29,816 nucleotides of DNA from a virus (lineage: Duplodnaviria; Caudoviricetes). Position 1 is the stretch's first letter; every line of letters begins with the position of its first letter. The translations under genes were made by a program, and so were the position numbers. The stretch covers positions 1 to 29,816 of the IMG/VR virus record IMGVR_UViG_3300030095_005515. One strand, given 5' to 3'. The notes beneath the pieces are model-generated. The model was not told the DNA's origin. It made no database searches and saw only the letters and a list, made by a program, of their open reading frames with translations. Of this stretch, positions 1-8,586 are shown in pieces.

Positions 1-2
1 CA

Positions 3-41
3 GAGACTCTTAAAACTGCTTTTGAAGATGCGGGGGTATAA
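3..41 (+). CDS. 3' end of an upstream gene truncated by the window edge (…ETLKTAFEDAGV*)
   Basis: Open frame from 3 to TAA at 39-41, overlapping the start of the exonuclease gene as is usual in this operon. Confidence 0.4.
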   Translation, partial: ETLKTAFEDAGV

Positions 42-765
42 TGTAAAAACTGCACTGATAGATGCTGACATAATGATGTATCGTTCAGCGTGGAAGCATG
101 AGGGTGATGATATTGAAAGTGCTTATGAAAGTATTGATGCTATGTTTGACCATATATTTGTTATGACAAAGTGTTCAAGTTACATAGGGTTTTTAACGGG
201 TAAAGGAAATTTTAGAAAAGATGTAGCTAAAACTAAACCTTACAAAGGAAATAGAAAAGATATGGTTATCCCTGAGCATTTAGACGCTGTAAGGGATTAC
301 CTTATAGAACAATGGAAGTGTGATGTTGTAGAGGGTTTAGAGGCTGATGATGCTTTAGGTATTTGTCAAACAGAAATGAAAGATACTTGTATATGTAGTA
401 TTGATAAAGATTTACTTCAAATAGAGGGGTTGCACTACAATTGGAATAAATCTGAGTTTACTGAAGTTTCAGAAAATGACGCTTGGTTTAAGCTTTATCA
501 ACAAACATTATCAGGAGATAGTACTGACAATATTGTGGGTATACCTAGAGTTGGAGAAAAGACTGCTAAAAAAATACTAGCAGAATGTTACTCGCCTCAA
601 GAAGCCTCAATAGCTACTATAAATGCTTACGGTAATTATTACAAAGACGATAATCATCTTACTATGTATCAAGAAAATTTTGACTTAGTTAAAATATGTA
701 CTTCTTTAAGTGATTCAAGGATAAAGGAAACCTTTACTATACCACAAATAAATTATATATTTTAA
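28..765 (+). CDS. 5'-3' exonuclease / flap endonuclease (T7 gp6-like, PIN fold + H3TH)
   Basis: LIDAD N-terminus, NFRK..YKGNR, LEADDALG, SIDKDLLQI, GDSTDNIVGIPRVGEKTAKKIL (H3TH). ATG at 28 preferred over TTG at 22. Confidence 0.92.
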   Translation: MRGYNVKTALIDADIMMYRSAWKHEGDDIESAYESIDAMFDHIFVMTKCSSYIGFLTGKGNFRKDVAKTKPYKGNRKDMVIPEHLDAVRDYLIEQWKCDVVEGLEADDALGICQTEMKDTCICSIDKDLLQIEGLHYNWNKSEFTEVSENDAWFKLYQQTLSGDSTDNIVGIPRVGEKTAKKILAECYSPQEASIATINAYGNYYKDDNHLTMYQENFDLVKICTSLSDSRIKETFTIPQINYIF

Positions 766-766
766 A

Positions 767-1018
767 ATGGACGAAAAAGAATTGAGAAAAGAGATTATGA
801 AACAACTTACTCAAACAAATGACTCTTGTCTTTTGGTTTTAGGTAATTTTATAAGCTCTGAAGCTATGGATATTGAATTTGCAGTAACGGCATCCGATGA
901 AGAATTATACGTGATGTTCTGTGAGTTATTTAGAAATGAAACAATTAGAGATGAGGCTAGAAAGGCTGTACTCTTCTCTGATTATGGAAAAACAAACGAC
1001 AGCCTAAACATTAATTAA
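767..1018 (+). CDS. hypothetical protein
   Basis: 83-aa ORF packed in the operon, A-rich start context. Confidence 0.75.
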   Translation: MDEKELRKEIMKQLTQTNDSCLLVLGNFISSEAMDIEFAVTASDEELYVMFCELFRNETIRDEARKAVLFSDYGKTNDSLNIN

Positions 1019-1024
1019 TTTATT

Positions 1025-1360
1025 ATGCAGAACTCAATTAAAGGGACTTTAGTTAAAGTCTTAGAAAAAGAAACGGGAACAACTAAAGAAGGTAAAGAAT
1101 GGAGCAAGAAAGCTTTTATCGTAAAAACAGAAGACAAATTCCCGAAAGAGGTTTGCTTTACTCTGTTCGGAGAAAAAGTAAGCCTTTTAGATTCTCACTC
1201 GATTGGAAGTCAAGTAGAGGTTCACTACAATCTTTCTTCAAGAGAGTTTAAAGGAAAATACTATCACAATATTGACGCTTGGAAGATTGATTCTGAAACA
1301 GCGACATCTACACAATCTGAATGGAAATCCGCTAAGGAGACTTCAGATTTACCTTTCTAG
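1025..1360 (+). CDS. ssb: DUF3127-type OB-fold single-stranded DNA-binding protein (Bacteroidota type)
   Basis: GKEWSK..F, DKFPKEVCFTLFGEK, SREFKGKYYHNIDAWKI and a C-terminal DLPF tail. Confidence 0.88.
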   Translation: MQNSIKGTLVKVLEKETGTTKEGKEWSKKAFIVKTEDKFPKEVCFTLFGEKVSLLDSHSIGSQVEVHYNLSSREFKGKYYHNIDAWKIDSETATSTQSEWKSAKETSDLPF

Positions 1361-1391
1361 TTATATCATAATTAGGGTTATTTATTAAATT

Positions 1392-1415
1392 GTAAGGGGG
1401 ATTCGTCCCCTTTAC
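1392..1415 (+). terminator. 10-bp hairpin with TTCG tetraloop (terminator or processing site)
   Basis: GTAAGGGGGA-TTCG-TCCCCTTTAC just after the SSB stop; only a weak U-tract. Confidence 0.65.
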
Positions 1416-1437
1416 TTAACCAATAAACTTTTTTAAA

Positions 1438-1653
1438 ATGAATAAAAAAATATCACAAAGCGAAATAAATAAGAGAATAAAACAAGTAACTGCAGAAGCT
1501 GAGTTTAGATTTAAATGTTTAGAGCTGGCTACTCCTTTCTCTAAAAAAATTAGTGAATTAATTGAAAACGCTACAAGCATTTATAATTATGCTTTTCATA
1601 TAAATCCTGAAGCACTTAAAAAAGCTAAAGAAAATGCAGATAGTTCTAAGTAA
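1438..1653 (+). CDS. hypothetical protein
   Basis: 71-aa ORF, TTAAAATG start context, overlaps the next gene. Confidence 0.7.
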   Translation: MNKKISQSEINKRIKQVTAEAEFRFKCLELATPFSKKISELIENATSIYNYAFHINPEALKKAKENADSSK

Positions 1654-2056
1654 AGACCAAGAGTTAGACTACGCTATTCAGTTTGTTTCTGATTTAATCG
1701 GGGTGTCTCCAATAGATATAATGGGTAAGACTAGAGTTAGGGATGCGGTAATTTCTCGGCACTTTCTAAGATACTACTTAAAGAATAAATGCTTTTTTAC
1801 TTTTTCTGAGATAGGTAGAATGACGGGGTGTAATCACGCTACTGTTATACACTCTGTAAAATATGTAGAAGAAAACGCTCCATACGATAGACTTTACTCC
1901 TTATATAAGGATAGTTTAGATAAAGGAATATTAAAAACAAACTCAGATATAAGAGTTAGTATTAGTAGAATACTAAATACTAGAAGGTCTAACGAATTTA
2001 AATGTAACGCATTAATATCATTATTAAATGAAAGAATTGAGAGTTCAAACGAATAG
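1634..2056 (+). CDS. stand-alone DnaA C-terminal (domain IV) helix-turn-helix protein
   Basis: DIMGKTRVRDAVISRH…FSEIGRMTGCNHATVIHSVK matches the Bac_DnaA_C signature; no AAA+ domain. Confidence 0.85.
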   Translation: MQIVLSKDQELDYAIQFVSDLIGVSPIDIMGKTRVRDAVISRHFLRYYLKNKCFFTFSEIGRMTGCNHATVIHSVKYVEENAPYDRLYSLYKDSLDKGILKTNSDIRVSISRILNTRRSNEFKCNALISLLNERIESSNE

Positions 2057-2288
2057 GGGGTGTTCTAGGCCTGTGGTGGCTGTTTGCCTTGACGAAAAAG
2101 CAAAGGAGTTATTTATGCAGGCTATATACTTTACAAGCGTTAGAAGTTGCGCAAAGTATTTAAACAGAAACCCCGCTGCAGTAACTAAAGTTTGTCAAGG
2201 AGCTTGGCACACTTGTAATAGCCATAAAGTATATTACGAAGAAGATTATGAAAAAAAATTCGGTAAACCTGTAAAGGTGGATTGGTAA
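2028..2288 (+). CDS. NUMOD1/IENR1-like small DNA-binding protein
   Basis: RPVVA…YFTSVRSCAKYLNRNPAAVTKVCQG..HTC..HKVYY resembles the NUMOD1 HTH module. Confidence 0.6.
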   Translation: MKELRVQTNRGCSRPVVAVCLDEKAKELFMQAIYFTSVRSCAKYLNRNPAAVTKVCQGAWHTCNSHKVYYEEDYEKKFGKPVKVDW

Positions 2289-2300
2289 ATAAAAAAAACT

Positions 2301-2951
2301 ATGAACAGAGATTTTAAGGGAATATGGATACCTAAAGAGATTTGGGAATCCAAAGAAATATCTATGCAAGAAAAAGTTTTCTTAGCTGAAATACACAGCT
2401 TAGATAATGAAAAAGGATGCATAGCAAGTAATGCTTATTTTGCTGAGTTCTTTCAGTTAAGTAAATCTAGCGTTAGTAGGGTTATATCTTCATTAGCTAA
2501 AAAAGAATTTATAAAGGTTTATTTAGTATATAAAGATAATAAGGAGGTTGATAAAAGAATTATAAGGTGCTGTAAGTATGGTAAAAAAGAAATAAAGACA
2601 GTAAAAAAGGAAGTTGTCAAATCATCTTATAATAGATTACCTGATGGGTTTGCTTTTAAAGTTATTGAGCACTTAAATGAGAAAGCTAATAGAAGATTTA
2701 GGGTTGGTTTACCTATAAGAAAATTAATAAACTCTAGGTTTAGTGAGGGTCATAATTTAGATGACTTTAAGCACGTTATAAACGTTAAGTCCTCTCAGTG
2801 GATAGGTACGGACTTTGAAAAGTTTTTAAGACCCTCTACGTTGTTTAACGCAACTAAGTTTCAAGAGTATTTAGCTGAGAAACCATCAGTTTCGAAAGCT
2901 AATAAAACAGAAATTATTACTAAATCTCAGATAGGTTTTTACGATGTATAA
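2301..2951 (+). CDS. phage replication initiator / replisome organizer (N-terminal wHTH, conserved phage C-terminal domain)
   Basis: FKGIWIPKEIW…EKVFLAEIHSLD..GCIASNAYFAEFF.LSKSSVSRVISSL; C-terminal VIEHLNEKA…FKHVI..K..QW…FLRPSTLF..KFQEYL; lies directly upstream of the helicase. Confidence 0.85.
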   Translation: MNRDFKGIWIPKEIWESKEISMQEKVFLAEIHSLDNEKGCIASNAYFAEFFQLSKSSVSRVISSLAKKEFIKVYLVYKDNKEVDKRIIRCCKYGKKEIKTVKKEVVKSSYNRLPDGFAFKVIEHLNEKANRRFRVGLPIRKLINSRFSEGHNLDDFKHVINVKSSQWIGTDFEKFLRPSTLFNATKFQEYLAEKPSVSKANKTEIITKSQIGFYDV

Positions 2952-3879
2952 GGTAAGTGATAAGAATGATATAAAACAATATGCGGGAAACATATTTAGG
3001 AATGGATTACCTAAAGGTGTTACTACGGGAATACCTAACTTAGACCCTCACTATAAATATAGGAAGGGTGAATTAGATGTTATCATGGGTTTAGCAAATA
3101 TAGGAAAAACAACTACGATGTTTTATTTGATGTTAAACGCATCTATGAGGTATGGTTGGAAGTGGTTATGCTATTGCCCTGAGAACGAACCTGTAGGTGA
3201 TATGATTTCTGATATTGCAGAAATGTTTGTAGGAAAAAGCGCAGATAAAGATAGGTCTGATAGAATGAGCGCTAGCGAGTTTAGTAATGCTATTGATTGG
3301 GTTTTAGAACATTTCACTATCATCACCTTTACCGAGCAACCATCCGCTACTCAAGTATTAGATGCTTTTGAAGAGCAGATGGAAGTTGTTAAGTATGATG
3401 GATGCTTAATAGACCCTTTAAATGATTTAAGGGTTGAAAATGGTTTCAGTAAGTATGACTACTATTATAATATGTTGTCAAACATTAGGAGATTTAAACA
3501 AAAACACAACGTAAAATTTATACTTACTACTCATGCGGGAACAACTGCGGCTAGAAGAAAAGATGACTCGAATAGAGTTCCAGCACCAAGTATGTATGAT
3601 GTTGAATTTGGCGGGATGTTTGCGAACAGAACCGACAATTTTATAGTAATACATAGACACTTAAATAGTGAGCAGTGGGATACAACTGAATTACACGTAA
3701 GAAAGATTAAGTTCCAAAAGTTAGTAGGCTTGCCGACTCAAGAGGATAGACCCGTGTTTTTGAAATATTCACCTAAAAGTTGTAGATTTACATATCTAAA
3801 AAACAGTAATGGAGGATTTTTTGAAGACCCGTTGTCTGAAATAAAAATAGATAAACCAAGCGAAATTTTAAATTTTTAA
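2944..3879 (+). CDS. SF4 (DnaB/T7 gp4/Twinkle-like) replicative helicase, no primase domain
   Basis: GVTTGIPNLD, RKGELDVIMGLANIGKTT (Walker A), CLIDP (Walker B), LTTH, SMYDVEFGGMFANRTD, VRKIKF. Confidence 0.88.
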   Translation: MYKVSDKNDIKQYAGNIFRNGLPKGVTTGIPNLDPHYKYRKGELDVIMGLANIGKTTTMFYLMLNASMRYGWKWLCYCPENEPVGDMISDIAEMFVGKSADKDRSDRMSASEFSNAIDWVLEHFTIITFTEQPSATQVLDAFEEQMEVVKYDGCLIDPLNDLRVENGFSKYDYYYNMLSNIRRFKQKHNVKFILTTHAGTTAARRKDDSNRVPAPSMYDVEFGGMFANRTDNFIVIHRHLNSEQWDTTELHVRKIKFQKLVGLPTQEDRPVFLKYSPKSCRFTYLKNSNGGFFEDPLSEIKIDKPSEILNF

Positions 3880-3887
3880 TTGAGGTG

Positions 3888-3929
3888 ATGGGGAGTTTTA
3901 AAAGATTTGGTCGTCTGAGCTCCCCACAT
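3888..3929 (+). promoter_or_regulatory. intergenic stem-loop after the helicase gene
   Basis: GGGGAGTT pairs with AGCTCCCC; inner AGAT/GTCT stem encloses a TTGGTC loop. Confidence 0.5.
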
Positions 3930-3946
3930 TTCTTAAAACAAGGGTT

Positions 3947-4135
3947 ATGGGAAGATTAAAAACATTTTTAATACAAGAGCAAATGCGAATTAGTGGTAAT
4001 TGGAGAGAAAAAGATAGTTTAGAGTATTTAGCTTGGAGAAAAAGTATAGAAGAAAAAGAACAAATTTATTATGAAGGAAAAGGAAAAGTCTCAAGAGGAA
4101 GTAAACAAAGAGGTGGCAAGAAGACAATGGGATAA
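3947..4135 (+). CDS. hypothetical protein
   Basis: 62-aa ORF with ATG just after the intergenic hairpin. Confidence 0.55.
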   Translation: MGRLKTFLIQEQMRISGNWREKDSLEYLAWRKSIEEKEQIYYEGKGKVSRGSKQRGGKKTMG

Positions 4136-4220
4136 TTGGATTACAGACTCAAAAAAAGAAGAAGAAGAAACACAATTCGATGAATATGGAAATAGCGGAA
4201 ATGGCAATGAAGACTCTTAG
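4071..4220 (+). CDS. small acidic hypothetical protein (49 aa, not in the ORF track)
   Basis: ATTTATTATG start; translates MKEKEKSQEEVNKEVARRQWDNWITDSKKEEEETQFDEYGNSGNGNEDS*; bridges the gap between neighbouring ORFs. Confidence 0.6.
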   Translation: MKEKEKSQEEVNKEVARRQWDNWITDSKKEEEETQFDEYGNSGNGNEDS

Positions 4221-4527
4221 AGAGTCTCAAACAACATCAGAAGAAAATAAATTTATGAAAGCATACTCTACTATGCTTATAGAGGTTGAAAGAATGAATA
4301 CAGAGTTGATAAATAACGCAAGCAGAGTAAGTAACGATGTTTACGCTAAAAAAGAAAAAAGAATTGAAGACTTAAGGGAGTGTTTAGTTTTATTTAATCA
4401 ATCATTCTTTAAAATGATGTACTATAAACAAGAAATGGTTACTTGGAAAACAAAAGCTTTGGATAAGGAACTTGAGTTTGTTAACTTTGTAACTAAATCA
4501 TTAAATAGTGAGTCAAATAGAAGATAA
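4180..4527 (+). CDS. hypothetical helical/coiled-coil protein
   Basis: 115-aa ORF; the true start may be a slightly later ATG. Confidence 0.7.
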   Translation: MNMEIAEMAMKTLRESQTTSEENKFMKAYSTMLIEVERMNTELINNASRVSNDVYAKKEKRIEDLRECLVLFNQSFFKMMYYKQEMVTWKTKALDKELEFVNFVTKSLNSESNRR

Positions 4528-4834
4528 GGTTGTATTAAAGATTATACAGAGGGCTAACAAAGGTTTTCACAAATATGGAACAACCATGGAGAGAAGTGAT
4601 TTAAGTCGATTAGATTGGCTTATTCACGCTCAAGAAGAGGCTATGGACTTATCTGTTTATCTTCAAAAACTTATAGATGAAGAAGAAGAGAAAAAGCACA
4701 ACCAGGAGTGCTGCAGTGAAAGCAGGATTCCGAAGTGGACTAGAACATCGAGTATGGAAGAATTTAAAACAAAGACATGTGACGGGATGTGCTTACGAAA
4801 CCCTGAAGGTCGATTATGTGATTCCTGCGACTAA
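4508..4834 (+). CDS. MazG-like all-alpha nucleotide pyrophosphohydrolase-family protein
   Basis: GTG start; RA.KG..KYGTTMERSDLS..DWL.HAQEEAMDL.VYL with an EExxD motif. Confidence 0.6.
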   Translation: MSQIEDKVVLKIIQRANKGFHKYGTTMERSDLSRLDWLIHAQEEAMDLSVYLQKLIDEEEEKKHNQECCSESRIPKWTRTSSMEEFKTKTCDGMCLRNPEGRLCDSCD

Positions 4835-5093
4835 TCATACTTATACACCCGATATAATTCTTCCTAACGGAATAGTGATAGAAGTTAAAGGTAGGTTAGT
4901 TAAAGCTGATAGAGATAAGCATTTACTTATTAAAGAACAGCATCCTGAACTTGATATAAGGTTTCTTTTTCAAAGCGCAAACAACAAGATAAGAAAGGGA
5001 AGTAAGACAACTTACGCTCATTGGTGTGATAAAAATGACATACTGTGGTGCGAAAAAATCATTCCTGATGCTTGGTTAAAGAAAATTAAGTAG
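4677..5093 (+). CDS. T7 endonuclease I-like Holliday junction resolvase
   Basis: FRSGLE, YTPDIILPNGIVIEVKGRL (PD-(D/E)xK), DRDKHLLIKEQHPELDIRFLFQ, KGSKTTYAHWC. Confidence 0.93.
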   Translation: MKKKRKSTTRSAAVKAGFRSGLEHRVWKNLKQRHVTGCAYETLKVDYVIPATNHTYTPDIILPNGIVIEVKGRLVKADRDKHLLIKEQHPELDIRFLFQSANNKIRKGSKTTYAHWCDKNDILWCEKIIPDAWLKKIK

Positions 5094-5101
5094 TATATTT
5101 G
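5072..5101 (+). promoter_or_regulatory. Bacteroidota sigma-A type promoter (for the candidate sRNA)
   Basis: TTG (5072-5074), 19-nt spacer, TATATTTG (5094-5101), matching TTG-N19-21-TAnnTTTG. Confidence 0.7.
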
Positions 5102-5102
5102 A

Positions 5103-5177
5103 ATATTCCCTGTTTATCTCTGCATAGTTTGTTTGGTAAGAGACGAGTAGCCCCTTTGTAGGGGTTACTTTTTTTTT
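5103..5177 (+). ncRNA. candidate trans-acting antisense small RNA against the replication initiator start region
   Basis: ~70-nt non-coding unit between a consensus promoter and a strong terminator; 5103-5134 is complementary to 2292-2325 in blocks of 9+7+8+3 nt. Confidence 0.65.
5146..5177 (+). terminator. intrinsic terminator
   Basis: AGTAGCCCCT-TTGT-AGGGGTTACT 10-bp stem running into a 9-T tract (5169-5177). Confidence 0.85.
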
Positions 5178-5186
5178 GTATATTTG
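5155..5186 (+). promoter_or_regulatory. Bacteroidota-type promoter for the phosphoesterase gene
   Basis: TTTG (5155-5158), 20-nt spacer, TATATTTG (5179-5186); ATG at 5194. Confidence 0.65.
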
Positions 5187-5193
5187 TGTCGTT

Positions 5194-5916
5194 ATGGAAA
5201 AACAGTACAGGCCTAGACTATCTGAATTTGAATGGGATTTAATAAAAAAAGCTAGGCAATCTACAGGAAACGTTCTAATTGTAGGTGATATTCACGAACC
5301 ATTTTGCATTGACGGGTATCTTGAGTTTTGTTTAACTCAGTTTAGAAAACACAGGTGTTCAGAAGTTGTGTTTATTGGTGACGTAATTGATTCTCACTAT
5401 TCGTCATTTCACACATCAGACCCTGATGGATATGGGGCAGGAGACGAACTAGAAAGAGCTATTGATAAAATAAAACAATGGCATAAGTTCTTCCCTATAG
5501 CTAAGGTTTGTATAGGTAATCACGACGCAATAGTCAGAAGAAAAGCTTTTGATGCGGGGATTTCCTCTAAATGGATTAGAGATTTTGATGAAGTTTTAGG
5601 TGTTCAAGGATGGGACTTTAAAGAGCATCACAAAATAAACGATGTTTTGTATGTTCACGGAACAGGAACTTCAGGTAGAAATGCCGCAGCAAATAAATCA
5701 CTACAATTTAACTGCAATGTAATTCAAGGGCACATACACACAGAAGCTTCTGTAATTTATAATGGTCAATATTGGGGAATGCAAGTGGGTTGCGGTGTAG
5801 ATAGGAAGAGTTACGCTATGGCTTACTCAAAGCACTTTGCTAAGTCTTACAAACTATCTTGCGGGGTTGTTTTAAATAATGGTAAAATGCCTATTATAAT
5901 TCCGTTTACCTCTTAA
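5194..5916 (+). CDS. calcineurin-like metallophosphoesterase
   Basis: GDIHEP, GDVID, GNHD, HG and GHIH motifs; ATG 5194 preferred over TTG 5176, which lies in the terminator/promoter. Confidence 0.9.
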   Translation: MEKQYRPRLSEFEWDLIKKARQSTGNVLIVGDIHEPFCIDGYLEFCLTQFRKHRCSEVVFIGDVIDSHYSSFHTSDPDGYGAGDELERAIDKIKQWHKFFPIAKVCIGNHDAIVRRKAFDAGISSKWIRDFDEVLGVQGWDFKEHHKINDVLYVHGTGTSGRNAAANKSLQFNCNVIQGHIHTEASVIYNGQYWGMQVGCGVDRKSYAMAYSKHFAKSYKLSCGVVLNNGKMPIIIPFTS

Positions 5917-6289
5917 TCTTTTCTATAGAACGACCAGCAAAATAAGCTCCGTAAACTGTTATTAATAAGGTTTGATATATTGGCTTATAAGCTTCTTGAA
6001 TTTCAAATCCACCCATGTTTCCGTCAAATATAGAAAGTATTACAAATATAGCAGTTAGAAACACGCAGATAAGTGGTCTTATGTTTTTGCTTAACCAATT
6101 ATCAGCCTTCATATCAGCCTCCCATCTACGAGTTACTTGTTCTTGAGCATTTGATTCAGCCTCAATTAACACTTCTTCCATAGCTTGTTTAGCAGCTAAT
6201 CTTTCTTCGTCAGAAGTAGATAAATTATCTATTACGTTTCCAACTTTTTCTATAACATTTCCACTAAGGAATTTAAGTAATTTACTCAT
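5906..6289 (-). CDS. putative holin (3TM/GTA-holin-like)
   Basis: VIDNL.TSDEERL, RWEADM..DNWLSKNIRPL followed by two hydrophobic segments, YF.GRS.EK; adjacent to the lysin. Confidence 0.75.
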   Translation of the reverse strand: MSKLLKFLSGNVIEKVGNVIDNLSTSDEERLAAKQAMEEVLIEAESNAQEQVTRRWEADMKADNWLSKNIRPLICVFLTAIFVILSIFDGNMGGFEIQEAYKPIYQTLLITVYGAYFAGRSIEKIKR

Positions 6290-6687
6290 ATTATGTTTAA
6301 ATAAAATGTTTCAGGAAGGGCTTTTAATAAGTCCTTCATTGTTTTTCTAGAACTAGTAACATCTAATTCTCCGTCTGAATTTATATCTGAATATTTTCTA
6401 CCTACGGCAACGCAACCTCTTAGTTGTGTGTGGTAGTTTGCTTGATGTATAAGTATGTAGCTTCTATTTTCAACATCATTAATTAAAAAATGTTCACCGT
6501 ACTTTTCAGATGTTCTTCTAGTAACCAAATACTCACCAAAAGGAATACAAGATATATTTTGCTTATTATCATTCCAAGACAGCTCTAAGGTTTTACATTG
6601 ATAAACCTCTTTAAGCTCATCGTGTATAGTAAGCTTTCCTAAAGTTTCTTTTCCTGTATCCATAAGCCTATTAAGAACTACTTTCAT
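6286..6687 (-). CDS. DUF5675-family putative endolysin (L,D-transpeptidase-like)
   Basis: TLGKL, CKTLELSW.DN…SCIP.GEY, V.NRSYILIH.AN…LRGCVAVG, SR.TM..L. Confidence 0.8.
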   Translation of the reverse strand: MKVVLNRLMDTGKETLGKLTIHDELKEVYQCKTLELSWNDNKQNISCIPFGEYLVTRRTSEKYGEHFLINDVENRSYILIHQANYHTQLRGCVAVGRKYSDINSDGELDVTSSRKTMKDLLKALPETFYLNII

Positions 6688-6998
6688 TTTATATTTTTAA
6701 GTCTTTCGTTTTCTTTCTCTAAGAACTCAACTTTAACTTTAAGTTCTGAAACTTGAGCAGTAAGGTCTAAAACAGTATCTCTTAACTCATCTTTTTCATC
6801 TGATGCTTTAGCTAAAAGAGACTCTAAATTTCTAACTCTATTTTTTAAGTCGTCACGATATTGCATTCCATCATCATTTTTAACGTCTTCATTTTTTTGT
6901 TCTGCCCTGAGCTTCATTCTAGCTTCTAAGTATTTCCAAATAGACGCACTACCTAAAACACCTATTACAGTGATTATTATTTGAATATAATCTTGCAT
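6684..6998 (-). CDS. membrane-anchored coiled-coil protein (holin- or spanin-like lysis accessory)
   Basis: N-terminal TM segment (IIITVIGVLGSASIW) followed by a long heptad coiled coil; in the lysis cassette. Confidence 0.65.
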   Translation of the reverse strand: MQDYIQIIITVIGVLGSASIWKYLEARMKLRAEQKNEDVKNDDGMQYRDDLKNRVRNLESLLAKASDEKDELRDTVLDLTAQVSELKVKVEFLEKENERLKNIK

Positions 6999-7360
6999 TA
7001 CAGCTCTTTTTTTATCTTTTCATTTACTATTCTAAAAGTATTCCACAAGGCAAAAAGAAAAATTATAATCCACTCTATTCTAGAACCATTTAAAAGGCCT
7101 GATAAGTATAAGTTTACGCAAGTCGTTGAAGAAATAATGGTAGCTATTTGAACAGCGTAAAATCTAAGCCTTAGACAATTAGAGAAAACGGCATATAATT
7201 GATAAACTCCTGACAAAATAGCTATAATTATTAAGGGTATATTTAAAGCGTTAAACTCCACACATATAGTTGCGGGTAATAAAAATATATGACAAACACC
7301 TATTAATATTTCGCTAGGCTCTCCGTCAGAATAAATTAATATTTGTTTTAACCTATTCAT
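6998..7360 (-). CDS. multi-pass membrane protein
   Basis: About four hydrophobic segments in 120 aa; stop/start overlap with the next gene. Confidence 0.7.
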   Translation of the reverse strand: MNRLKQILIYSDGEPSEILIGVCHIFLLPATICVEFNALNIPLIIIAILSGVYQLYAVFSNCLRLRFYAVQIATIISSTTCVNLYLSGLLNGSRIEWIIIFLFALWNTFRIVNEKIKKEL

Positions 7361-7392
7361 TATTTTGCTTTTCTGACTTTTTTAGCTGCCAT
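7360..7392 (-). CDS. 10-aa basic mini-ORF (MAAKKVRKAK)
   Basis: AAAAATG start overlaps the end of 7382-7537; its TAA overlaps the ATG at 7360 (TAATG). Confidence 0.35.
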   Translation of the reverse strand: MAAKKVRKAK

Positions 7393-7537
7393 TTTTGTGT
7401 TTTGTTTGAACTTCAAATTCAGCAGTTAAACTAGCTCCTTTGTGAGGCACAAATTTTCCTGAATGTTTCATTAATTTATAACTACTTCCACTTTTCATCC
7501 AATGATGACCCGCAGGTGCTTTTATTTTTTTTTTCAT
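7382..7537 (-). CDS. small basic protein (51 aa, not in the ORF track)
   Basis: MKKKIKAPAGHHWMKSGSSYKLMKHSGKFVPHKGASLTAEFEVQTKHKNGS*; starts 3 nt after the upstream stop. Confidence 0.8.
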   Translation of the reverse strand: MKKKIKAPAGHHWMKSGSSYKLMKHSGKFVPHKGASLTAEFEVQTKHKNGS

Positions 7538-7540
7538 ACT

Positions 7541-7831
7541 TTACCACTTTACTTTATCTGCCCAATAAGCAGCAGACATCTTACCTTTAGCTATATTTTT
7601 TTTGTGCCTAGCCTTGAATGAGGCTCTTTTCTTTTTCATCTTTTCAGATTCACCTTTTTTAGGTTTACCTGCAGTTTTAGCTCCTTGCTCTCCAAACCTA
7701 ATAGTTTTTATTTTATCACCATCTTTAGCTACAACAACATGCGATTTTTTAGGGTGACTAGGAGTTCGTTTAGGTTTATTATAACCTGAAACACCTGCTC
7801 TTTCTAGTCTTGAGTCTTTTTTTTTAACCAT
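7541..7831 (-). CDS. small Lys/Arg-rich protein of a type recurrent in aquatic phages
   Basis: YNKPKRTP.HPKKSHVVVAK.G..IK.IRFG.QG…R.SFKARH…SAAYWADKVKW. Confidence 0.8.
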   Translation of the reverse strand: MVKKKDSRLERAGVSGYNKPKRTPSHPKKSHVVVAKDGDKIKTIRFGEQGAKTAGKPKKGESEKMKKKRASFKARHKKNIAKGKMSAAYWADKVKW

Positions 7832-8586
7832 TACGATGCAGTATAATTAGTTGAACGCTTACTATAAGATATATTCCAAGAAACTTTAACAAAGTCAGTT
7901 CCTCCCGTATGAGAGCTAGCTTTTACAAATAAAAATATTTTTTTACCTCTAGCTATTTTAGACCCTGCAACAGACTCTACAGCAAAATCGTAACCTGTAC
8001 TTACTACAGCGCAATTTACTGTTTTTTGACCTATAAAAGTAGCGTTTTGAAGAGATGCGTTTGTTCCGTCATCTTGGTCTGCGTAAAAAGCTATTATATC
8101 TACATTGCCAGCCTGACTAGAATTAAGCACAGTGCCTGATATTTTAACGTCAAAAACTTCAAAGGGAACTTCTATCCCTAAGTGAGAATATTGGCCTAAT
8201 ATAGATGGTGACACTGTATTGCTAAGTGATACTGTAGTAAATTGAGTCCACGCAAAGTAAGCCCAACCATAAGTACCACTACCGTAATACCATCTATCTG
8301 CAGCAGTTGCCCCTACTCTAAAAGAACCCGCAGCTAAAGAACCAAATGTTTTATCATCAGCTATTACTTCTACGGACTTTACTAACGTATGTAAAAAAGC
8401 ACGAACATTTTCTGCTTTAATACCGCCTTTTACATTAGTCTTAAAATTATCTTCAATAAAGTGAAGTAAGTTATCTCTATCAAATTGTTCATTTGCAGTT
8501 ACAGCAGCAGAATCATTACTCCTACCTTGACCTGTAAACTTAGTATTATAATTTGAAGCTTCATTTGTGTAATTAGGTGTAGCCAT
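7831..8586 (-). CDS. putative virion structural protein (helical N-terminus, beta-rich C-terminal domain)
   Basis: 251 aa, Ser/Thr/Gly-rich, follows the head-tail adaptor. Confidence 0.6.
   Translation of the reverse strand: MATPNYTNEASNYNTKFTGQGRSNDSAAVTANEQFDRDNLLHFIEDNFKTNVKGGIKAENVRAFLHTLVKSVEVIADDKTFGSLAAGSFRVGATAADRWYYGSGTYGWAYFAWTQFTTVSLSNTVSPSILGQYSHLGIEVPFEVFDVKISGTVLNSSQAGNVDIIAFYADQDDGTNASLQNATFIGQKTVNCAVVSTGYDFAVESVAGSKIARGKKIFLFVKASSHTGGTDFVKVSWNISYSKRSTNYTAS

Follow-up and report, generated by a model that had tools for sequence, protein, structure and literature searches.

Positions 5072-5177 of virus record IMGVR_UViG_3300030095_005515 probably encode a small antisense RNA which is directed in trans against the translation start of the phage's own replication initiator and would likely brake initiator translation. 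Taken more broadly, as an RNA antisense to phage start regions of some breadth, the assignment appears very probable. The idea of a trans-encoded, imperfectly pairing RNA was put forward in an earlier note on this DNA; it is sustained by the conservation of the unit, the top rank of the initiator start and covariation at position -1, and has been amended with respect to the internal fold, the number of pairs and the possibility of weaker additional targets. Throughout, the window denotes the whole stretch analysed (29.8 kb; 29,816 nt, 33% G+C).

Early and replication genes occupy the plus strand of the window up to position 5916, and the head, tail and lysis genes are located on the minus strand. 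TAnnTTTG promoter boxes point to a Bacteroidota host. The relevant features are the following:

2292-2325, plus strand: translation-start region of the initiator gene (ATG at 2301), the predicted target
2301-2951, plus strand: replication initiation protein gene, 216 aa (phrog_428, E 2e-37; PF09524, Phg_2220_C; PF13730, HTH_36)
2944-3879, plus strand: DnaB-like helicase gene, the start of which overlaps the end of the initiator gene by 8 bases
4677-5093, plus strand: endonuclease I gene, directly upstream of the RNA unit (PF05367, E 3e-51)
5072-5074, plus strand: TTG, predicted as the -33 element of a sigma-A promoter of Bacteroidota type; lies within the last part of the endonuclease gene and is followed by a 19-nt spacer
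5094-5101, plus strand: -7 box TATATTTG of the same predicted promoter
5105-5175, plus strand: predicted small RNA of ~70 nt, with inferred ends
5105-5111, plus strand: open 5' seed, predicted to pair with initiator codons 6-8 (2317-2323)
5112-5115, plus strand: predicted internal loop versus the initiator
5116-5122, plus strand: central block, predicted to pair with 2306-2312 (codons 2-4)
5123-5134, plus strand: anti-AUG block, predicted to pair with 2292-2303; base 5126 is opposite position -1 and covaries with it
5146-5177, plus strand: predicted intrinsic terminator (hairpin 5146-5169, T9 to 5177)
5179-5186, plus strand: second promoter box TATATTTG (TTG at 20 nt), predicted to drive the metallophosphoesterase gene separately
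5194-5916, plus strand: metallophosphoesterase gene, the downstream neighbour of the RNA unit

The names given earlier to the initiator and endonuclease I are borne out by these family matches. Two genes ahead of the initiator, the phage gene at 1634-2056 encodes a DnaA C-terminal helix-turn-helix domain (PF08299, E 5.5e-12), and no direct-repeat iterons were evident in the initiator region. Completeness is 97-100% in five relatives that are 35.7-37.7 kb long, four of them with direct terminal repeats, and neither a tyrosine integrase nor a serine resolvase was found in these complete or near-complete genomes (0/5 for each). One complete relative (G001) encodes an early gene product similar to the M20/M42 peptidase family (L255 2178-3239) and, at its end (L255 position 58, minus strand), carries a full TTG-21-TAnnTTTG promoter facing the early genes and followed by a U-rich stretch. 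In the search for cultured relatives, the initiator matched 360 phage records, all at less than 60% identity, with no Bacteroidota phage among the best 30 of the 360, and a helicase search of genome contigs returned no prophage or host copies.

The TTG, the 19-nt spacer, the TATATTTG box, the hairpin, the T9 run, the pairing blocks and the 2292-2325 target all lie exactly where the earlier note had placed them. Among 29 distinct promoter-side variants, the TTG with its 19-nt spacer is present in 27 and the -7 box conforms to TAnnTTTG in 25, the other four ending in A. Given that the TAnnTTTG box is described at -12 to -5 relative to +1 in Flavobacterium psychrophilum (PMC9723704), the +1 of the predicted RNA should be at ~5105-5106. 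At the other end of the unit, 95% of the cells of the terminator are paired in the alignment, and its covariation score exceeds those of 500/500 shuffles and of all slid controls. The second promoter box, which is found at the same place in most relatives, even where another gene is inserted, follows the terminator, so that the metallophosphoesterase gene would need no read-through. For the unit to be the 5' leader of that gene was ruled out, because the gene has a promoter box of its own and the unit persists behind an inserted gene. The branch represented by G004 has a DNA methyltransferase gene inserted between the RNA unit and the metallophosphoesterase gene (L262 8726-9865).

The consensus fold of the aligned units consists of the terminator alone. 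An internal stem pairing TCTCTGC with 5136-5143, which had been proposed earlier, proved to be lineage-specific: the TCTCT/AGAGA stem is formed in 8 of 20 single folds, whereas a separate hairpin behind the anti-AUG stretch, with a loop that often reads UUGGUU, is formed in nine. Likewise, the anti-AUG stretch had been thought to be exposed mainly in a U-rich loop; in the window, the part predicted to be open is instead the 5' end, with an unpaired probability of about 0.8-0.9 over the first 8 bases. The other strand of each unit (window 5103-5145; also L046, L166, L204 and L207) resembles an A-rich translation start with a tiny ORF, which is probably a mere mirror of a start region. A functional mini-ORF on the minus strand (M-Q-R-stop in the window) appears unlikely, given that there is no synonymous codon change, the length is variable and the signals point to the plus strand. 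Two metatranscriptome runs labelled as marine metagenomes, searched as contigs, yielded short scattered matches over positions 1-8000 and none over the unit, with no indication of the phage being present in these runs.

Relatives were collected in six scans of viral contigs and one scan of metagenome contigs. Behind the endonuclease gene, the unit is found in a close group and in two deeper branches (L046/G004 and L166/G005), with model R1 scores of 99-110 bits in the close group, 78 bits in G004 and 43.5 bits in G005; from promoter to terminator, it is kept in an alignment of 19 rows. The non-coding antisense blocks are nearly invariant, whereas the flanking proteins are 70-94% identical. In the central block, six positions are paired in 18/18 RNA-target pairs, G-U allowed, and the A at 5116 in 14/18, values to be read with the fact that the alignment pattern fixes this block. 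The central 9 bases are identical in the close group and the G004 group despite the differing spacing of the target, and in the G004 branch the RNA carries CAUAUC facing a GAUAUG start. The internal loop varies in both sequence and length (a 4-6 nt segment including the closing A), and the distance between RNA and target ranges from 2.7 to 4.5 kb (2.8 kb in the window). No such unit was seen, as judged by eye, behind the endonuclease homologues of other phage groups (L050-L115). A pattern search also gave 27 matches in genomes of bacteria and archaea; none exceeded 19.1 bits with model R1, and we regard them as fortuitous. Judged by this sequence conservation, the unit is a real, conserved feature.

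The predicted RNA and the initiator start share pairing blocks of 9+7+8+3 over 2292-2325, interrupted by a 4x4 loop, a 2-nt bulge in the target and one mismatch. All 27 pairs originally counted are present in the DNA; the pairs at 5103-5104 are probably outside the RNA, which, with the +1 expected at 5105 or 5106, would leave a duplex of about 25 pairs. Position 5103 is also the least kept of its block among the relatives (9/18 paired). Of all non-self duplexes in the window, both strands included, the best is that between the 5' half of the unit and 2292-2325 (-30.1 kcal/mol, the next being -23.8). A ranking against other gene starts and shuffled controls, as had been proposed, placed the initiator first among 37 gene starts (-33.8, the next being -24.1), and 2 of 1000 dinucleotide shuffles reached -33.8 against any start. 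Counted from the predicted +1 at 5105, the duplex amounts to -27.7, a value matched against any of 35 starts by 0 of 1610 real 32-nt control windows. The complementarity in the window exceeds chance.

For the relatives, scanning whole stretches for duplexes with long queries gave too much noise, and a cofolding score in which self-structure carries a penalty was used instead. Twenty distinct loci hold both sites, with 7-44 starts each; they are related rather than independent. By this score, the initiator start ranks first in 13 of the 20 loci and among the top three in all of them. Furthermore, when 685 ORFs from 18 genomes or large loci were compared as 44 families, each present in at least five, the initiator family was the best (mean z -2.45, worst -1.57; next family -1.36). 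At the whole-genome level, the initiator ranks 1/50 in the window, 2/72 in G001, the top place there being taken by an ORF on the strand opposite the unit itself, 2/62 in G002, 4/62 in G003, 4/67 in G004 and 23/62 in G005. The latter is the most distant homologue, and pairing with its initiator is weak. RNAs pair better with their own targets than with swapped ones (residual -2.0 kcal/mol with p 0.0001 when all 20 rows are taken, and -0.9 with p 0.016 for the 18 close rows), both values being inflated by kinship.

Covariation of the RNA with the 5' end of the initiator gene, another prediction of the earlier note, is evident as a three-state pattern at position -1; it is confined to this one column, and several changes elsewhere are uncompensated. 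We compared 18 distinct RNA-target pairs located on single contigs and a 19th that joins L126 (target) and L048 (RNA), which overlap with 98.7% identity over 628 nt. Position -1 is paired in 18 of the 19 (A-U in 10, U-A in six, G-C and U-G in one each), with one mismatch. Of 83 variable initiator columns, no other fits the RNA column opposite -1 so well, and among 8632 control pairs of endonuclease and initiator columns, a single one does as well. However, 210 of the 8632 reach 18 paired with two pair types only, so that much weight rests on the G-C row, which is the joined two-contig pair. On the helicase, initiator and flanking-gene trees, the RNA base opposite -1 changes three times and the target base five to seven times, and on the helicase tree, every RNA change coincides with a complementary target change. 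Since the deep branches of the trees are poorly supported, we count two to three independent covariation events. The mismatch belongs to the L006/L007 lineage, which is sister to the window in the flanking-gene tree and not in the initiator tree, suggesting that these genomes are mosaic as a result of recent exchange or recombination.

Where the target varies, the variable bases are in the bulge or keep a G-U pair, as at +11 (10/18) and +6 (4/18). Uncompensated breaks occur at +18 (5/18, in register), +12 (4/18), -2 (3/18) and -5 (6/18). Codon usage was examined in 25 initiators, thinned at 95% from 36 distinct sequences and counted without the pattern that fixes AGA. Codon 3 is AGA in 25/25, whereas at five other conserved Arg sites the commonest codon accounts for 0.52-0.76; ATA occupies codon 8 in 24/25, and codon 7 (Gly) is either GGA or GGG. 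Synonymous variation is 0.24 in the first ten codons versus 0.42 in the rest of the gene. The start of the helicase gene is equally fixed (0.22), although it overlaps the end of the initiator gene; three other gene starts are not fixed (0.41-0.48), a further start yielded only one codon, and for another three the rows were too few. Among the 18 pairs, codons 6 and 7 read AAG GGA in 13, AAA GGG in three and AAA GGA in two, so that the GGG run survives in 16/18. In L177 and L179, the RNA retains CCC opposite a target with only GG, which indicates that something else constrains the RNA. In many close relatives, although not in the window, the last codons of the upstream gene contain GGGAGG about 8-14 bases before the initiator ATG (L002 7987-7993), a Shine-Dalgarno-like motif in a host group said to rarely use one.

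A similar unit is present in a more distant phage group, in which the helicase is about 58% identical and the initiator is a different, short protein (phrog_270, E 4e-8). It was found via weak model hits (best 24.7 bits, E 0.04) and may or may not be homologous to the unit of the window. This predicted promoter-to-terminator unit of ~70-78 nt is located about 400 nt after the helicase gene in 22 of the 23 distinct loci printed (for instance, L203 7361-7445, L204 4682-4766 and L207 from 7403, as well as most other loci of L202-L229). It is U-rich, contains one to three copies of UUGGUU, often in a 5' hairpin loop, and mirrors the AACCA-rich leaders of many early genes. Its own initiator ranks 1-7 of 17-34 starts in the 17 loci scored, showing no initiator specificity; its top five matches are on the early strand in 17/17 loci, where most ORFs are on that strand.

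The breadth of targeting bears on whether the RNA could be a general brake on early-gene translation, mirroring the A-rich start region shared by Flavobacteriia-type genes, with the initiator being one of several comparable targets. Such an RNA would account for the loop bases GUU being largely retained, and the UUGGUU unit of the distant group, which pairs with many early leaders, would be its counterpart. Positions 5105-5114, that is, the seed and 5112-5114, also mirror, in relatives, the stretch from -12 to -3 of certain other early genes. Mirrors of the 5' 9-mer of the RNA, with one mismatch allowed, fall within start regions in 13 of 83 cases, compared with 4.2% expected, six of them at -11 or -12, and recur ahead of a single conserved early gene outside the window, which carries a promoter box of its own; the p value of this enrichment is nevertheless too small, given that the seed was selected with the matches already known, that start regions are rich in A and that the motif might be of Shine-Dalgarno type. 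In addition, the best scores in the two deeper branches belong to other genes, namely, an early gene for a 624-aa protein of no known family in G004 (L261 17603-19474), the start of which forms 12 contiguous pairs with the 5' end of the RNA, and a 54-aa gene in G005. Against this stand the close group, in which the initiator family is well clear of all others, and the covariation with the initiator, and we consider a general brake unlikely. Other early genes may nonetheless be weaker targets of the 5' seed. The candidate second target is a conserved early gene of ~200 aa (phrog_7838; L255 4689-4721 and homologues), which is located upstream of the first base of the window; it has a promoter box of its own, and its short leader is a mirror of either the 5' seed or the central block.

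Three further alternatives appear less probable. It is very unlikely that 5072-5177 is only the terminator and spacer of the early operon, its mirror of the initiator start being left over from an ancient inverted duplication or being a DNA-binding site that occurs repeatedly, without any pairing between RNAs in the cell. The unit does lie at the end of the early gene run, and the uncompensated target changes would be expected of a relic, but its antisense blocks are far more constant than the flanking proteins, the promoter is kept directly ahead of them, the -1 column covaries across 2.7-4.5 kb, and the G-U pairs kept at +11 and +6 fit RNA pairing rather than DNA identity. More doubtful still is genuine pairing within one long early mRNA, or via a piece cut from its 3' end, resembling the CI RNA of P4, which is described as processed from the transcript it controls (PMC4825925). 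Target and antisense stretch share a strand and a gene run, with no terminator-like site detected on the plus strand between them; however, relatives retain a complete -33/-7 promoter just ahead of the antisense stretch, the pairing fades at the predicted +1 and the distance to the target is variable. Least probable of all appears a host mRNA as the main target, with the match to the initiator being secondary. The described trans-acting phage sRNAs PreS and VpdS often target host mRNAs (PMC12197685, 10.1101/2024.10.31.621285), and the identity of the central 9 bases in groups that differ in target spacing would agree with a shared host target, but the covariation tracks the phage's own initiator.

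We thus favour a trans-encoded antisense RNA against the initiator start. To judge by sequence signals and conservation, the unit has its own promoter and terminator and does not overlap the target locus, as is characteristic of trans-encoded base-pairing sRNAs, and its predicted complementarity to the target mRNA is imperfect, specific and conserved, albeit weak in G005. Host sigma-A RNA polymerase would start near 5105 and produce an RNA of ~70 nt, the open 5' seed of which would first bind initiator codons 6-8; pairing would then extend over codons 2-4, the AUG and the A-rich positions -1 to -5. The resulting duplex would keep the 30S subunit off the initiator start, as GibS does in Bacteroides. 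Helicase output may drop too, by translational coupling, because the helicase start overlaps the last 8 bases of the initiator gene, and a few other early-gene leaders would be likely, weaker targets of the 5' seed. Should this mechanism hold, the chances are about even that it serves to brake or time replication initiation in a dose-dependent manner while phage templates build up; this is favoured since a constitutive promoter would make the level of the RNA track the number of templates, as in plasmids. Copy control in a carrier state and exclusion of related phages would share the rest.

RNA control of a replication initiator is textbook biology in plasmids, where the RNA is a perfect counter-transcript, and CopA/CopT is one such rep antisense system. 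RNAII of pMV158 and the RNAI species of pT181 and pSK41 are described as counter-transcribed from the rep leader, fully complementary to it and limiting initiator synthesis (PMC5703833). The unit of the window resembles these plasmid RNAs in being a small RNA predicted to limit the synthesis of a replication initiator, yet it is not a counter-transcript, being located on the same strand as its target, 2.8 kb off, and pairing with a loop, a bulge and a mismatch. The earlier note had not recognized the RNA as a described family, and Rfam agrees, with 0 matches for the window at gathering score; once E values of up to 5 are allowed, five hits far below threshold appear (GcvB, rimP, sbrA, Hrs13 and ST7-AS2), mostly driven by the terminator.

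Among phage RNAs, c4 of P1 and P7 is described as acting in trans, with ~70-77 nt that pair around the ribosome-binding site of a phage mRNA and block its translation (PMC12197685, PMC8546580). The likeness extends to phage encoding, similar size, action in trans and pairing with a start region predicted to block translation. A phage RNA working in trans is thus no novelty as such, c4 having been described in this way (PMC8546580). By contrast, c4 is reported to be a processed RNA of the immI operon which hits antirepressor mRNA through loops (PMC12197685, PMC8546580), whereas the unit of the window has its own predicted promoter and terminator, is 2.8 kb downstream of its target and aims at the initiator. 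Nor does it belong with c4 or CI by family or context: no Rfam model matches, its neighbours are endonuclease I and metallophosphoesterase genes, and there is neither an immunity operon nor an antirepressor target. The promoter located directly upstream of the antisense stretch argues for a primary transcript rather than a cut precursor. The CI RNA of P4 is described as keeping phage replication genes off by imperfect pairing, with premature transcription termination in lysogens (PMC4825925); unlike CI, which is processed from a regulated transcript, the present RNA has the start codon as its predicted site, and no integrase was found in any of the five relatives. PreS of lambda and VpdS of VP882, reported as trans-encoded phage sRNAs tied to DNA replication (10.1101/2024.10.31.621285, PMC12197685), differ in being described as Hfq-dependent, acting mostly on host targets and promoting replication. 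Outside phages, GibS of Bacteroides thetaiotaomicron, a member of a phylum described as having no obvious Hfq, is a 145-nt RNA whose long open 5' seed masks the start codon in mRNAs without a Shine-Dalgarno sequence (PMC7366714). The Bacteroidota-type character, the open 5' seed and the predicted cover of a start codon are shared with it; GibS, however, is chromosomal, longer and directed at metabolic targets, and no sequence link between the two was found (no Rfam hit). In the mainly open-access literature searched, part of a 2025 phage sRNA review included, there was no separately encoded, imperfectly pairing phage RNA against the phage's own initiator; the part of the supplement to PMC10690425 that was searched holds no match in its candidate list, the remainder of which may include the unit.

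If the RNA is real, the natural allele pairs at -1 are ready compensatory controls, and it would provide Flavobacteriia, in which most mRNAs have no Shine-Dalgarno sequence, with a compact repressor that can be tested. A bolder and decidedly tentative extension is that 'anti-start' RNAs, encoded by promoter-to-terminator units and shutting down early translation, form a widespread class among marine Bacteroidota phages that do not integrate. Here, a general mirror of A-rich leaders might have been specialised into an initiator lock, that is, plasmid-style dose control exerted from a separate locus, with the covarying bases possibly setting exclusion among relatives. More immediately, if real, the RNA would mean that small phages in which no integrase is detected could time or cap their replication with 70 bases.
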